A stretch of 64,000 nt of DNA, from assembly GCF_013167455.1 (NCBI RefSeq), contig NZ_CP038328.1; one strand, 5' to 3'. Shown piece after piece: positions 29,442-34,472 of the stretch (its first letter is position 1; each line of letters starts with the position of its first letter). The notes under the pieces are model-generated. The model searched no databases. It was not told the DNA's origin and saw only the letters and a list, made by a program, of their open reading frames with translations. Both the position numbers and the translations under genes were made by a program. This DNA is from Escherichia coli O157:H7 (GTDB taxonomy: Bacteria; Pseudomonadota; Gammaproteobacteria; Enterobacterales; Enterobacteriaceae).

Positions 29442-29978
29442 ATGTCATTTATTAAAACTTTTTCCGGGAAGCATTTTTATTATGACAGGATAAATAAAGA
29501 CGACATCGATATTAACGATATCGCGGTTTCCCTTTCAAATATCTGTCGCTTTGCCGGTCATCTTTCGCACTTCTACAGCGTCGCCCAACATGCGGTTCTT
29601 TGCAGCCAGCTGGTACCGCAGGAATTTGCTTTTGAAGCATTAATGCATGATGCAACAGAAGCGTATTGCCAGGACATCCCCGCTCCACTGAAACGCCTTC
29701 TTCCTGACTATAAACGGATGGAAGAAAAAATTGACGCCGTAATCCGTGAGAAATACGGGTTACCCCCAGTTATGAGTACGCCCGTGAAATATGCCGATCT
29801 TATCATGCTGGCAACCGAACGCCGCGATCTCGGGCTTGATGATGGCTCTTTCTGGCCTGTACTGGAAGGCATCCCGGCAACAGAGATGTTCAACGTGATT
29901 CCACTGGCACCTAGCCATGCCTACGAGATGTTTATGGAACGTTTTAACGAGTTATCGGAGTTACACAAATGCGCATGA
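29442..29978 (+). CDS. HD-domain phosphohydrolase (YfdR-like 5'-deoxynucleotidase)
   Basis: …SLSNICRFAGHLSHFYSVAQHAVLCS…LMHDATEAYCQDIPAPLK… His/Asp metal-binding motifs; ATG 29442 with GGAGA RBS. Confidence 0.65.
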   Translation: MSFIKTFSGKHFYYDRINKDDIDINDIAVSLSNICRFAGHLSHFYSVAQHAVLCSQLVPQEFAFEALMHDATEAYCQDIPAPLKRLLPDYKRMEEKIDAVIREKYGLPPVMSTPVKYADLIMLATERRDLGLDDGSFWPVLEGIPATEMFNVIPLAPSHAYEMFMERFNELSELHKCA

Positions 29979-30319
29979 ATGTTTTCGAAATGGAAGGGTT
30001 TCTTCGCGGGAAATGTGTACCGCGAGATCTGAAAGTGAATGAAACAAATGCTGAGTATCTGGTGCGTAAATTCGATGAAGTACGTGCTGAGGCTCGCAAC
30101 GAGGGTATTAACTATACCGCAAGCCGTCTTGCTGCTGCTTTCAATCACGGATTTATCAATAAGCCTTTGGCTGAAGTTTTCGACGTTACACGCATGATTC
30201 TGTCAGCAAAAGAAGAGTTAGCTAATGAATCGCATCCGATTGATGGCCTGTCCGGTGAATATGCAGAGAAATCCCTTGAAGAATGGGCGGAACGGCTTCG
30301 CAAAGGAGGCAGCCAGTGA
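29969..30319 (+). CDS. hypothetical protein
   Basis: 116-aa ORF overlapping neighbours at both ends (translational coupling). Confidence 0.45.
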   Translation: MRMNVFEMEGFLRGKCVPRDLKVNETNAEYLVRKFDEVRAEARNEGINYTASRLAAAFNHGFINKPLAEVFDVTRMILSAKEELANESHPIDGLSGEYAEKSLEEWAERLRKGGSQ

Positions 30320-30789: not shown

Positions 30790-30935
30790 GCATCCAGTGA
30801 GTAGGTTCGTAAGGTTACAGATACGTATATCTGAATAATTAAATTCAGTTCTGTAAATAAAATTTAATCCTTAACCGGAGGGATTCCTGCACCCTCAGAA
30901 CATCAGGAGACCGCCCGAAAGGGCGGTAATGAAAA

Positions 30936-31403
30936 ATGGCTGAATTAACCAAATGGCTACAAAACACGATTACCGGAATTGAAACGGTAGTAGACGATAA
31001 ATCGTTTGTATGTGATGAAATAGTATTCAAAATCGATGTGGTTAAAAACGTACTTACCGCATTTAAAGTCGCGCTGGTATCGCTGGAAGCCGAACCGGTG
31101 ACATGGCGATATCGCTACGTGAGAAAAGGCGTTACGAACTTTCAGGAGAAGCCGTGGGTTGGTGACTGGAAATATGTACCGACAAAAGAGGATTGCAACG
31201 ACAGGCCGAACTATGAAATTCAGGCGTTATTCACGGCCCAGCCTGTGCCACTGACACCCGAAGGATTGATTAAAGCGGTGCGCTTCTATGAACAGGTTAA
31301 GAGTGAAAATCCGCCAGTCGAAACCGGAGCATGGAAAGACGCTGTTGACTGGGTGCTCAAAGAGGCTTGTCAGGCTGTAAACATTGGCATCAAAGGAGAG
31401 TGA
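30936..31403 (+). CDS. hypothetical protein sharing an N-terminal module with CDS 31599..32333
   Basis: MAELTKWLQNTITGIETVVDDKSF… versus MNTLTKEWLQNTITSIESARDEIPF…. Confidence 0.5.
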   Translation: MAELTKWLQNTITGIETVVDDKSFVCDEIVFKIDVVKNVLTAFKVALVSLEAEPVTWRYRYVRKGVTNFQEKPWVGDWKYVPTKEDCNDRPNYEIQALFTAQPVPLTPEGLIKAVRFYEQVKSENPPVETGAWKDAVDWVLKEACQAVNIGIKGE

Positions 31404-31404
31404 G

Positions 31405-31596
31405 ATGAACGGACAAATATCAATTGTTCGACCGGGAGCATGTGACGATCGCGAGATACGAATGATTATTCGTCTGGCGATGGGGAAAACAATAACAGCT
31501 CTCATTACTCCTGAAAATCTCGCATTAGCATTAACAGGAAAGTCAGACTTGCCAGTAGAGCTAAAGCTGCGAAATGTTGAGATTAAGGTGAAATAG
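31405..31596 (+). CDS. hypothetical small protein
   Basis: ATG 31405 after GGAGAG; 63 aa. Confidence 0.35.
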   Translation: MNGQISIVRPGACDDREIRMIIRLAMGKTITALITPENLALALTGKSDLPVELKLRNVEIKVK

Positions 31597-31598
31597 TT

Positions 31599-32333
31599 AT
31601 GAATACTCTTACCAAAGAATGGTTACAGAACACGATTACCAGCATTGAGTCAGCACGGGATGAAATACCGTTCGGACTCGATGAAGATCAAAACAACATG
31701 CTTACCGCATTAAAAATTACACTGGCATCACTGGCAGCAGTATCGGATGAACGAGCAGCCTATGAATTATTTATGGAGAAGCGTTTCGGGGAATCTGTAG
31801 ATCGCCGTAGGGCAAAAAATGGCGATAGAGAATACATGGCATGGGATATGGCGCTTGGCTGGATTATCTGGTGTCACCGCGCCGCCATGCTTCAGGGTAG
31901 CCAACCTGTAAGCCAAACTTACAACTTGCCAGAATTAATCGAAGGCATGGAAGTTTCCATTGATATAAGCACTTGTGATGCTGATTTAGGTAATCGCTAT
32001 TTCGGCACCGTCACCGAAGCGTTAGAACTTGATACAGCCAAGAATGGTTACATCCTCTTGGTTCAGGACGCAGAGCCAAACTTCGATGTAAATGGCAACT
32101 CTCCGGGAACTCCGGATAGTTGGATAAGCTGTAGTGATCGAATGCCTGAAAAGGGCCAGAACGTGCTTATTTCAGTGAATTTCGATAGCTCTCTGGTTGA
32201 ACCGCTAATATGCTCCGCACGCTATACCGGAAGCACCTTTCGGCGCGGAGATGCAACGATTAAGCCGGGTAATGGTATTGAGCAAGCAACTCACTGGATG
32301 CCGCTACCGGAACCGCCGCAGGAGGTGAAGTGA
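31599..32333 (+). CDS. DUF551-like prophage protein
   Basis: C-terminus …ISCSDRMPEKGQNVLI…ATHWMPLPEPPQ typical of DUF551. Confidence 0.55.
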   Translation: MNTLTKEWLQNTITSIESARDEIPFGLDEDQNNMLTALKITLASLAAVSDERAAYELFMEKRFGESVDRRRAKNGDREYMAWDMALGWIIWCHRAAMLQGSQPVSQTYNLPELIEGMEVSIDISTCDADLGNRYFGTVTEALELDTAKNGYILLVQDAEPNFDVNGNSPGTPDSWISCSDRMPEKGQNVLISVNFDSSLVEPLICSARYTGSTFRRGDATIKPGNGIEQATHWMPLPEPPQEVK

Positions 32334-32905
32334 TGAACAACTTAATGATCGACCTTGAGACGATGGGGAAAAATAAGGATGCACCGATCGTTTCCATTGG
32401 CGCGGTGTTCTTCACTCCAGAAACCGGAGACATCGGACAAGAATTCTATGCGGTTGTCAGCCTAGACAGTGCTATGAAGCAAGGAGCTACACCTGACGGC
32501 GATACCATCCTGTGGTGGTTGAAACAAAGCCCTGAAGCGCGAGCTGCAATCTGTATTGATGATACTTTGTCGATCAGCGATGCTCTCTCAGAACTAAACC
32601 ATTTCATTAACCGGCACGCAGACAATACGAAATATTTAAAAGTCTGGGGTAACGGGGCCACCTTCGACAACGTAATTTTACGTGGAGCTTACGAGCGAGC
32701 AGGACAAATCTGCCCGTGGGCGTACTGGAATGACCACGATGTACGCACGATCGTTACGCTTGGGCGTTCCATCGGATTCGACCCCAAAATGGACATGCCT
32801 TTCGATGGCGAACGGCACAACGCCCTGGCTGATGCCCGTCATCAGGCAAAATATGTTTCCGCTATCTGGCAGAAATTAATTCCTGCCACCAGCACAGAAT
32901 TATGA
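32330..32905 (+). CDS. DEDDh-type 3'-5' exonuclease
   Basis: LMIDLETMGKNKDAPIVSIGAVFF (Exo I), …WGNGATFDNVIL… (Exo II), …HNALADARHQA… (Exo III). Confidence 0.65.
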   Translation: MMNNLMIDLETMGKNKDAPIVSIGAVFFTPETGDIGQEFYAVVSLDSAMKQGATPDGDTILWWLKQSPEARAAICIDDTLSISDALSELNHFINRHADNTKYLKVWGNGATFDNVILRGAYERAGQICPWAYWNDHDVRTIVTLGRSIGFDPKMDMPFDGERHNALADARHQAKYVSAIWQKLIPATSTEL

Positions 32906-33483: not shown

Positions 33484-33903
33484 TTACTCATCATCAATAG
33501 ATGATACGCAATATTTATTTTTAAATTTAAGGTTCTTTGGCGTAACTTCATCAGAGATATCAAAACCGTCCAGAATTCTATTGAATGTAGCTTCTGGCAT
33601 ATCATCATGAACAGAAATCTCACCCGATCGCTGCTTTCTAACCATGTTATCCACTCGCCAAATTATAGCTTCAGCGTAAACAACATAACTTGGATGCTTG
33701 ATAAAGCGATGATCACCAGAATTCAAGACGCAAGACGGATCGTGGGGGACACCATCCTTGATACTAGAAATATTAACAACTAAAACACAATAACAATCGT
33801 TAACGGGGTAATAAACAGGATCATTACAAATCACATGAAGATGATTGCATGGTCCAGTTGGGGCAAGCACAGTTCCTTTCCTGTATGGCTGATAATCCGT
33901 CAT
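33484..33903 (-). CDS. hypothetical protein (candidate toxin/effector partner)
   Basis: 139 aa, Cys/His-rich (…CNHLHVICND…HDPSCVLNSGDHRFIKHPSY…); ATGA overlap with the upstream gene. Confidence 0.55.
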   Translation of the reverse strand: MTDYQPYRKGTVLAPTGPCNHLHVICNDPVYYPVNDCYCVLVVNISSIKDGVPHDPSCVLNSGDHRFIKHPSYVVYAEAIIWRVDNMVRKQRSGEISVHDDMPEATFNRILDGFDISDEVTPKNLKFKNKYCVSSIDDE

Positions 33904-34472
33904 GATAATTGCAAAGAAAATTCCTTAAGTTTCTGAGATTCTTCCATTTTGCCAATTATGCGATTAGCCTCATCCTCGCTTTTACCCTCACTGATCAGCA
34001 TTTCTTTCAGGTCTATAGGCTTACGAGAATTGCCAGGATCGTGCCACTCTGGACAAACGCTTTCTAAATGCGTCATATTTGCGAGATCAAATCGGTTCAT
34101 ATGCCCATACCGAGAATAGATTTCATCTAAAATCCGGATATCTGCACGACTCAATTCATCAAAGACCTCGTCTGCATCCATTTCCCTCGGATCTGAACGC
34201 AACGATACATTATGCCCGTTCGTCTCTATCAAGTTGTACCAGTAGTCACCAATGCCTTCAGCCTTACCGCGAATCAAGTTCAGCGTATTCGACATGACTG
34301 GTCCAAATTTCATAGAGTAAAGGCTATCTTCGCCGATCATCCTGCCATGCTTCAAAATCGACTGGCGGTTAGACAGATAGAGCAGCTTCATCAATTTCAG
34401 ATATGCCATGCGCCCACCTCTCTTAAGAAGTAGGTATGCAGCCATTTGAGCTACTTTTTCTTCGCAAAACAT
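33900..34472 (-). CDS. Panacea (DUF4065/SocA-like) antitoxin-domain protein
   Basis: 190 aa; N-terminus MFCEEKVAQMAAYLLLKRGGRMAYLKLMKLLYLSNRQSILKHG resembles the N-terminal signature of Panacea-domain proteins (recalled); AT-rich. Confidence 0.5.
   Translation of the reverse strand: MFCEEKVAQMAAYLLLKRGGRMAYLKLMKLLYLSNRQSILKHGRMIGEDSLYSMKFGPVMSNTLNLIRGKAEGIGDYWYNLIETNGHNVSLRSDPREMDADEVFDELSRADIRILDEIYSRYGHMNRFDLANMTHLESVCPEWHDPGNSRKPIDLKEMLISEGKSEDEANRIIGKMEESQKLKEFSLQLS

Follow-up and report, generated by a model that had tools for sequence, protein, structure and literature searches.

A portable N-terminal module, predicted to be a helical hairpin, heads two mosaic proteins of an Escherichia coli O157:H7 prophage

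Introduction

Two neighbouring genes in a 64,000-nucleotide stretch of Escherichia coli O157:H7 DNA (assembly GCF_013167455.1, contig NZ_CP038328.1; this whole stretch is referred to as the window) begin alike and end differently, which raises the questions of what the shared beginning is, how two copies came to stand side by side and what they might do. The genes, taken from the list of open reading frames (ORFs), are ORF1 (30936..31403, + strand; ATG start, 155 residues), which consists of an N-terminal module and a beta/alpha C-terminal domain, and ORF2 (31599..32333, + strand; ATG start, 244 residues), in which the N-terminal module is followed by a YfdT-like module, a middle segment and a DUF551 domain. 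The initial annotation, made from the sequence alone, had read them as early genes that share a duplicated N-terminal module and had suggested shuffling of a common targeting or interaction domain. Here we describe the shared part as a portable head of the kind found in the phage protein EaA, predicted to fold as a helical hairpin and combined with different partners by mosaic assembly. We hold this structural and evolutionary description with high confidence. The proposal that the hairpin acts as an interaction scaffold is more tentative, falling slightly short of even, and the explanation taken as a whole, with head, mosaic assembly and scaffold role together, we consider somewhat probable.

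Two neighbouring genes share one N-terminal module

Comparison of ORF1 with ORF2 by BLASTP returned one significant segment, residues 1-52 against 1-47, with 26/53 identical positions (49%) and E=3e-9, and beyond it only noise (E>1). The proteins are unrelated past about 47-53 residues, which bears out the earlier view that they diverge into different C-terminal domains, and the pairwise alignment that had been called for extends over about 50 residues rather than a few. Chance similarity was considered as a source of the likeness and is ruled out by this E-value together with the 806 profile-matched clusters described below. The description of the two genes as beginning almost identically is accurate for the first ~17 residues; it does not hold for the second half of the module, which is more diverged, with a 6-residue insertion in ORF1 and without the PFGL loop there. 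Relative to ORF2, the aligned part of ORF1 also carries a 1-residue deletion.

At the DNA level, the aligned codons of the two modules are 68% identical, with proportions of synonymous (pS) and nonsynonymous (pN) differences of 0.48 and 0.27; the best stretch is 21/23 nucleotides over KWLQNTIT, and the same codon is used in 18 of the 26 residues that are identical between the proteins. A tblastn search of the window found exactly two copies of the module. The copy in ORF1 (30936..31100, + strand; residues 1-55) represents a sublineage with the 6-residue insertion and ends in the junction VALVSLEAEPV; other members of this sublineage are the clusters P0313, P0322, P0330-P0337, P0378 and P0394. 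The copy in ORF2 (31599..31739, + strand; residues 1-47) has the canonical EaA-type form with an RDEIPFGLDED loop.

Distribution, conservation and predicted fold of the module

Among 1.84 billion representative proteins, a profile built from alignment A2 of the module matched 806 representative clusters at E<=1e-3, 510 of them at E<=1e-10, so that the proposed survey of other prophages places the module in hundreds of temperate-phage proteins. It lies almost always at residues 1-50, in proteins of 50-364 residues. Conservation, domain content, clustering and linker counts were then taken from 134 module-bearing representatives. Up to position 47, column entropy stays low (roughly 0-1 bit, typically near 0.3 bit), and from position 49 onward it is near 3 bits. 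W8, L9, I13 and L35 are invariant, and T5, K6, Q10, E17, R20, D21, P24, F25, G26, L27, E29, N33, A37 and A41-A47 nearly so. The module ends at a sharp junction, ALASLEAEPV, behind which the sequence is extremely diverse: greedy clustering of the post-junction sequence gave about 48 differing first downstream segments among the 134 representatives. Pfam recognized DUF551 in 25 of these proteins, PF04447 (DUF550) in five and nothing in the remainder.

The module itself is poorly represented in reference collections. Searched in isolation, it had no match in Pfam even at E<=10, and NCBIfam and PADLOC were likewise empty. Sequence searches of the PDB returned nothing with profile A3 at E<=1 or with profile A4 at E<=10, Foldseek found no PDB match with E<=0.001 for either full-length model, and a literature search on the module and linker motif strings yielded no relevant paper. 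In PHROGs, the module is scattered over families 660, 60, 5117 and 3323. Among annotated phages, tblastn placed it at the head of EaA/Eaa1 in the P22-like phages BTP1, ST64T and L, and it is also present in N15 gp45 and in phi80, HK140, mEp460 and relatives of Shiga toxin (Stx) phages. Going by the libraries and the literature search used, the module and its linker 'grammar' appear not to have been curated as a domain.

Between divergent copies of the module, synonymous differences are saturated (pS 0.82-0.86) while nonsynonymous differences remain low (pN 0.17-0.20), and even inside the junction ALASLEAEPV the codons differ between lineages through synonymous changes. Since synonymous sites are saturated while the amino acids are kept, the module is selected as a protein and is under protein-level purifying selection. 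AlphaFold2 models of both proteins, which had also been called for, each show an N-terminal antiparallel helical hairpin, with helices at residues 6-22 and 29-63 in ORF2 (predicted local distance difference test score, pLDDT, 87-96) and at 2-20 and 27-51 in ORF1 (pLDDT 60-83). The module is therefore predicted to be a small antiparallel two-helix hairpin. Its conserved hydrophobic residues are spaced by three to four in a heptad-like manner (L9, I13, M/I16, I23; L35, L38, L42, L45), and the small residues at positions 37, 41, 43 and 44 would permit close helix packing.

Recombination at fixed linkers

The suggestion of module shuffling finds strong support, as dozens of unrelated sequences follow the same N-terminal module, breakpoints can be located in the DNA, the C-terminal domain of ORF1 is itself mobile and a natural recombinant can be identified. 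When related viral loci were anchored at the ATG and their DNA was compared with ORF2, identity was 94-99% over the upstream 160 nucleotides and over nucleotides 1-135 of the gene, and then fell to about 25%, which is the random level. The drop occurs at codon 44-47 for at least six different downstream partners, and breakpoints of a second class fall at codon ~98, directly behind AAMLQ. Gene variants differ by recombination exactly at linker motifs, namely ASLEAEPV, LYTAPP, AAMLQG and GNSPxxPD-W. LYTAPP-like linkers are found in 85 of the 134 representatives, AAMLQ/K in 75 and GNSPV-like linkers in 37, and 59 end in the C-terminal motif PxQE. Domain-level mosaicism of accessory proteins in the ea or exo-xis region is already known, and what is seen here is ordinary phage gene mosaicism and no new system.

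A widespread gene for a protein of 187 residues (L042 3325-3888; relatives in L034-L043, L048 and L050-L053), present in at least 15 viral contigs and also in O157:H7 genomes such as EDL933, shows how the two genes of this locus have exchanged sequence. It matches the leader and first ~16 codons of ORF1 at 94% and codons 5 to ~99 of ORF2 at 97%, after which a different tail follows; the crossover lies inside the shared TKEWLQNTIT stretch, where ORF1-type and ORF2-type informative sites form a patchwork. This gene is a natural recombinant of the leader and 5′ end of ORF1 with ORF2, and it is the product to be expected of recombination between directly repeated modules, with loss of the ORF1 body and of the 63-residue ORF that separates the two genes.

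The two copies in the window were brought together by mosaic recombination from distinct sublineages, not by local duplication. This reading follows from their identity of 49%, from the 6-residue indel, from relatives 88-100% identical to each copy that occur elsewhere on other partners, from upstream contexts that differ (a non-coding leader for ORF1 and the 63-residue ORF for ORF2) and from locus counts: 62 of 80 related IMG/VR loci hold one copy, and the 18 loci with two copies all have exactly this arrangement. To call the module duplicated is accordingly misleading, as the copies are 49% identical paralogues of two separately widespread sublineages.

A different rearrangement is seen in a lineage of 65-residue proteins (P0001, at least 1000 contigs; for example NZ_CP018241.1 5082511-5082738), in which a deletion of ~1.5 kb fuses ORF1, from codon ~51 at the junction motif, to an out-of-frame position in the 3′-5′ exonuclease gene near 32560. 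Lost with it are the C-terminal domain of ORF1, the 63-residue ORF, the whole of ORF2 and the beginning of the exonuclease gene.

ORF1: a mobile C-terminal domain and a portable leader

ORF1 matches phrog_660 (E=1.4e-47), and its AlphaFold2 model has a mean pLDDT of 71. The protein has no Pfam match and so is not a DUF551 member. Its C-terminal domain (31101..31400, + strand; residues 56-155) was modelled as a small beta sheet over residues 56-98 (pLDDT ~83), an LFTAQP linker, two helices and a terminal IKGE. Pfam, NCBIfam and PADLOC were empty for this domain even at E<=10, and Foldseek against the PDB (E<=0.001) did not support a resemblance to the solved C-terminal domain of lambda Ea22. 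The domain also follows other N-terminal helical modules, at least seven in number. Each of these is joined to it at ..IALASLEAEP[VM]AW, and among them are a YfdT-type N-terminus and a lambda-type Ea22 (PF13935) N-terminus with its coiled coil (P0067, P0120, P0137). Parts of the domain occur in lytic, T7-like and P2-like phages. In most module-bearing proteins (P0286-P0428), a hypervariable segment of 25-40 residues begins with AW or AY right after EAEPV and ends in PLYTAPPAPV. In the ORF1 model, this segment (residues 56-98) is the small beta sheet, of which the first and last strands are conserved, and as modelled it looks like a diversified binding element.

Upstream of ORF1, an AT-rich non-coding gap of 146 nucleotides (30790-30935) interrupts an operon that otherwise has no gaps. 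The 3′ end of the gap is a conserved non-coding leader of ~75 nucleotides (30862..30935, + strand; RNA fold z=-2.4), which contains a hairpin at 30910-30927 with a 7-bp GC stem and a GAAA loop (ACCGCCC-GAAA-GGGCGGT), located 8 nucleotides 5′ of the ORF1 start codon. Three different module-bearing genes share this leader, which in other prophages lies 5′ of unrelated DUF4014 and DUF7167 genes and is found at up to four places per E. coli genome; in a variant at locus L075, the stem is retained through G-U wobble pairs. The leader matched nothing in Rfam, nor did scans show a promoter or terminator pattern in it. It might serve as a portable 5′ untranslated region, a processing element or a translation-control element.

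The 3′ end of ORF1 (AAAGGAGAGTGAgATG) serves both as coding sequence and as ribosome-binding site for the gene behind it: in ...ATC AAA GGA GAG TGA g ATG (31390-31407), the IKGE codons provide the Shine-Dalgarno sequence (AAGGAG) of the 63-residue ORF. The boundary ..GAAGGAGAGTGAGATG also stands 5′ of module genes in loci L057 and L058. Ea22 proteins have a C-terminal 'K/RGE' motif (PMC7093339), and this motif may be a constraint of the gene boundary, that is of the ribosome-binding site, and not a protein motif.

ORF2: a chain of modules

ORF2 matches phrog_60 (E=6e-44) and has thousands of relatives. Its second module, which is YfdT-like (31740..31898, + strand; residues 48-100), ends in the linker RAAMLQG. 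The middle segment (31899..32117, + strand; residues 101-173) was modelled with pLDDT<50 over residues 101-168, and Pfam was empty for it at E<=10, as were NCBIfam and PADLOC. The DUF551 domain (32118..32321, + strand; residues 174-241) scores 77.7 bits with PF04448 (cut-off 22; E=1.3e-21) and is beta-rich in the AlphaFold2 model (pLDDT ~85); the full PF04448 model is matched above the gathering score, which makes ORF2 a member of DUF551. A 181-residue variant at locus L047 corresponds to ORF2 minus the YfdT-like module, with the joint EAEPV|SQTYN where ORF2 has SQPV|SQTYN.

Public annotation handles both genes poorly. In strain RM8352 (L001 12239-13534 on NZ_CP028110.1, equivalent to 31038-32333 of the window), the Prokaryotic Genome Annotation Pipeline (PGAP) starts ORF1 from the GTG at 31038, giving a product of 121 residues from which the module is lost. 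In the same strain, PGAP splits ORF2 around its unannotated middle segment into two 'partial' DUF551 pseudogenes, although the gene is intact there, with a single-nucleotide difference and uninterrupted translation. Truncation of one gene and splitting of the other render the shared module invisible in public annotation, and this misannotation appears to be an artefact of the mosaic architecture.

Locus and operon context

The 1.6-kb region is 99.9% identical across 70 complete genomes and belongs to a prophage of E. coli (Shiga toxin-producing O121/O157/O111-type strains), one end of which adjoins a fragment of the tRNA-dihydrouridine synthase gene dusA. The genes form a tightly packed operon on the + strand, which runs from a LexA-family cI-like repressor through yfdP, yfdQ (DUF2303) and yfdR (HD phosphohydrolase) to a 116-residue ORF, an S-adenosylmethionine-dependent methyltransferase, ORF1, the 63-residue ORF and ORF2, and then to an Rv2179c-like 3′-5′ exonuclease and a PrtN-like (excisionase-type) gene. 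This operon is the counterpart of the lambda exo-xis region, of the P22 'ea' region and of the yfdPQRST-torI segment of K-12 CPS-53. Judging by sequence and gene order, ORF1 and ORF2 are very probably mosaic accessory proteins of this early-leftward operon in a CPS-53-like prophage region. Their designation as early genes is reasonable by position, between a cI-like repressor and an excisionase-like gene, as for eaA in the P22-like phage BTP1. The 63-residue ORF (31405..31596, + strand; phrog_1222, E=7.5e-38) is the constant 5′ partner of ORF2-type module genes and lies directly upstream in most loci, whichever C-terminal partner they carry. The exact genes occur in hundreds of sequenced genomes: DNA of the ORF2-type module is present in 532 of 5426 E. 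coli genomes, and the leader with the ORF1-type module in 929 of the same set.

Further genes of the prophage are of note. The 116-residue ORF (29969..30319, + strand), a third gene of the operon, repeats the pattern of a shared start and a divergent remainder: it has an N-terminal 36-42 residues that are 88% identical to K-12 YfdS (MRMNVFEMEGFLRGKCVPRDLKVNETNAEYLVRKFD) and then diverges fully; it has no DUF551 after the YfdS-like start, whereas YfdS itself runs on into DUF551. A 208-residue relative of this ORF in a Stx2a phage (L084 1167..1793) has an extra coiled-coil insert between both parts. At the end of the prophage, beside the dusA fragment, a gene with a Panacea domain (SocA-like antitoxin; 33900..34472, - strand) overlaps an ORF of 139 residues (33484..33903, - strand), and the two are probably a toxin-antitoxin cargo pair; neither PADLOC nor NCBIfam had a match for them.

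Comparison with known phage proteins

The closest known relative of the head is EaA (P22/BTP1 eaA, ST64T Eaa1, phage L EaA-1). Residues 1-47 of BTP1 EaA and of ORF2 share 28/47 positions (60%, E=5e-15), further EaA/Eaa1 proteins of P22-like phages give matches of 54-62% along 52 residues, and the ORF1 copy is diverged. The setting is also the same, with BTP1 eaA lying in the pL operon between erf/abc2 and xis. However, EaA runs on into a dATP/dGTP pyrophosphohydrolase domain (PF04447/DUF550) that was not found in ORF1 or ORF2, and the RefSeq name of the P22-like EaA proteins is 'DUF550 domain-containing protein'. DUF551 (PF04448), for its part, covers only the C-terminal domain of ORF2; ORF1 and about 80% of the module-bearing representatives lack it.

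Lambda Ea22 and P22 Ead (PF13935) share architecture and locus with the proteins studied here: a helical N-terminal part stays constant, the C-terminal domains are variable and portable, and the genes lie in the exo-xis region. DUF551 is present in one Ea22 variant (PMC10834534), the C-terminal domain of ORF1 occurs on lambda-type Ea22 N-termini through the same type of joint (LEAEPMAW, in P0067, P0120 and P0137), and the terminal KGE of ORF1 is found as in Ea22 proteins (PMC7093339). In contrast to the long coiled coil of Ea22, the module is a hairpin of ~50 residues, and PF13935 was matched neither by ORF1 or ORF2 (E<=0.01) nor by the isolated modules (E<=10) nor by the 134 representatives (E<=1e-3).

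The CPS-53 prophage (KplE1) of K-12 offers a second comparison and has the same operon context, with yfdP-yfdQ-yfdR upstream and an excisionase-type gene downstream. Residues 30-90 of K-12 YfdT (101 residues) are 72% identical to ORF2 37-97 (E=2e-30) and nothing else aligns; the N-terminus of YfdT is a different helical module, and ORF2 is 143 residues longer. YfdS, like ORF2, ends in DUF551, but its N-terminal module differs. ORF2 differs from both in uniting YfdT-like and YfdS-like parts in one protein, with an extra middle segment.

Families of polymorphic toxins and effectors have a conserved N-terminal part, a demarcation motif (for example VENN in CdiA) and variable C-termini. The likeness to the present proteins, which likewise have a constant N-terminal region, a short junction motif and highly diverse C-terminal cassettes exchanged by recombination, is by analogy only, and no homology was found. 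Unlike such toxins, ORF1 and ORF2 have no secretion or delivery domain, adjacent immunity gene or toxin domain, and they are small, cytoplasmic and encoded in a phage early operon. Searches at E<=0.01 against PADLOC-DB, with its models of anti-phage defence and anti-defence proteins, gave no hit for the two proteins or for their neighbours.

Proposed function and alternative explanations

Given the protein-level purifying selection and the predicted helical-hairpin fold, the targeting or interaction role suggested at the outset is plausible. In hundreds of proteins from temperate enterobacterial phages, the module is a swappable head, to which widely differing downstream modules are attached at a constant junction (..ALASLEAEPV..). 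The hairpin would act as a protein-protein interaction scaffold, by self-association in a helical bundle, by docking on one common partner, or by both, and could thereby display the variable C-terminal domains, a role comparable to that of the N-terminal and coiled-coil part within the tetramer of lambda Ea22. An interaction or oligomerization role is proposed because this fold class normally packs against other helices, which fits and is no proof. Proteins of the ORF1 and ORF2 type would then modulate host physiology early after induction. In Ea22, which forms tetramers, a variable C-terminal domain is carried on a constant N-terminal and coiled-coil part (PMC10834534), and diverse as its sequences are, the protein is pro-lysogenic (PMC7093339). 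For CPS-53, DnaA-dependent initiation of replication is inhibited when yfdQ and yfdR are present in multicopy along with yfdS or yfdT, and DnaA is bound by YfdR (PMC4776307). By analogy, a role of ORF2 in host replication or in the balance of lysis and lysogeny is a reasonable guess; it rests on the YfdT-like module and the YfdS-like one (DUF551), combined in a gene that follows homologues of yfdQ and yfdR, and not on the shared head.

Several points weigh against the scaffold proposal. The AlphaFold2 monomer model does not discriminate self-association from docking on a partner. In ORF1, the near-invariant loop RDEIPFGLDE is missing and the 6-residue insertion is present, so that the two copies may have no partner in common. 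The analogies to Ea22 and to YfdS and YfdT derive from architecture and from other modules rather than from the N-terminal module, and the N-termini of YfdS and YfdT differ from it.

Other accounts of the locus deserve to be weighed beside this one. With regard to origin, the two copies could stem from a recent tandem duplication within this prophage, with the C-terminal halves replaced afterwards; the direct orientation of the modules, 663 nucleotides apart, and the codons shared in 18/26 residues would agree with such an event. We consider it very improbable, since module identity is as low as 49% for amino acids and 68% for nucleotides with the 6-residue indel, each copy has relatives of 88-100% identity elsewhere on other partners, the upstream contexts differ, and the two-copy state is confined to this arrangement, most of the viral loci having one copy only. 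Hardly more credible is that ORF1 truly begins at the GTG at 31038, as in the 121-residue PGAP product of strain RM8352, which would leave the N-terminal module untranslated there and borne by ORF2 only. The stable hairpin 8 nucleotides before the ATG at 30936, at the expected Shine-Dalgarno site, agrees with the later start. However, the 34 in-frame codons upstream of 31038 encode a recognizable and selected copy of the module, the full-length form is annotated in phage mEp460_4F5, full-length clusters of 155/156 residues exist, and the arrangement of leader and ATG is kept before three module-bearing genes.

What keeps the module conserved is a separate matter. Its 5′ end might be retained for reasons of DNA or RNA, as a recombination 'boundary sequence', for translational coupling or as a regulatory RNA, with the peptide incidental. 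Breakpoints between gene variants do coincide with the module end, recombination has taken place between the two copies, the DNA of modules with differing partners in the E. coli phage pool is 94-99% identical, and the ORF1 terminus doubles as a ribosome-binding site. Set against this are the divergent lineages, in which synonymous sites are saturated while the protein is kept and the codons of ALASLEAEPV vary, an empty Rfam scan, and a confident AlphaFold2 helical hairpin with heptad-like conserved hydrophobic residues. The DNA account is thus improbable, if marginally less so than the two above; DNA homology probably assists exchange, yet does not account for conservation of the module. A narrower version of the protein account, in which the module is a specific adaptor that docks all of its carriers on one conserved partner (a host hub, or co-encoded proteins of the YfdQ/YfdR type acting on DnaA) and would serve for targeting instead of self-association, stands at perhaps one chance among several and is on balance unlikely. 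Near-invariant surface and loop residues (K6, Q10, E17, R20, D21, P24, F25, G26, L27, E29 and N33) exceed the needs of a hydrophobic core, ORF1 and ORF2 lie just downstream of yfdQ and yfdR homologues, and in CPS-53 yfdS or yfdT is needed alongside yfdQR (PMC4776307). Conversely, the N-terminal module is found in neither YfdS nor YfdT, module genes occur in P22-like, lambdoid and N15-like phages without yfdQR nearby, and the PFGL loop is missing from ORF1. We retain the interaction scaffold, with self-association, partner docking or both, as the preferred reading of the hairpin.

More speculative still, and in our view clearly less likely than the general adaptor, would be a large and uncurated 'polymorphic early-effector' system of temperate enterobacterial phages, defined by the hairpin and its ALASLEAEPV junction, in which the constant 47-residue head docks on one hub of host or phage and small variable cassettes, numbering in the hundreds, are swapped at the linkers. 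If such a system existed, recombination would provide a diversity library for host manipulation, with a logic akin to that of polymorphic toxins; the cassettes would often open with a hypervariable beta segment of 25-40 residues between EPVAW and PLYTAPP, and two heads with different cargo in one prophage would be two effectors on the same hub.

Significance for the ea/exo-xis region

No part of lambdoid and Stx prophage genomes is less well understood than the ea/exo-xis region, yet, as Ea22 and the YfdQRST genes demonstrate, both host replication and the choice between lysis and lysogeny are under its influence. Among the region's 'hypothetical' proteins, many are strings of a few recurring modules with fixed linkers and one uncurated hairpin head of 50 residues, and the recombination joints between these modules are documented here at codon resolution. 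Recognition of the module helps to parse and annotate ea-region proteins, of which ORF1 (truncated) and ORF2 (split) in RefSeq are examples. Because the head is one small domain, a partner sought once would serve hundreds of proteins.

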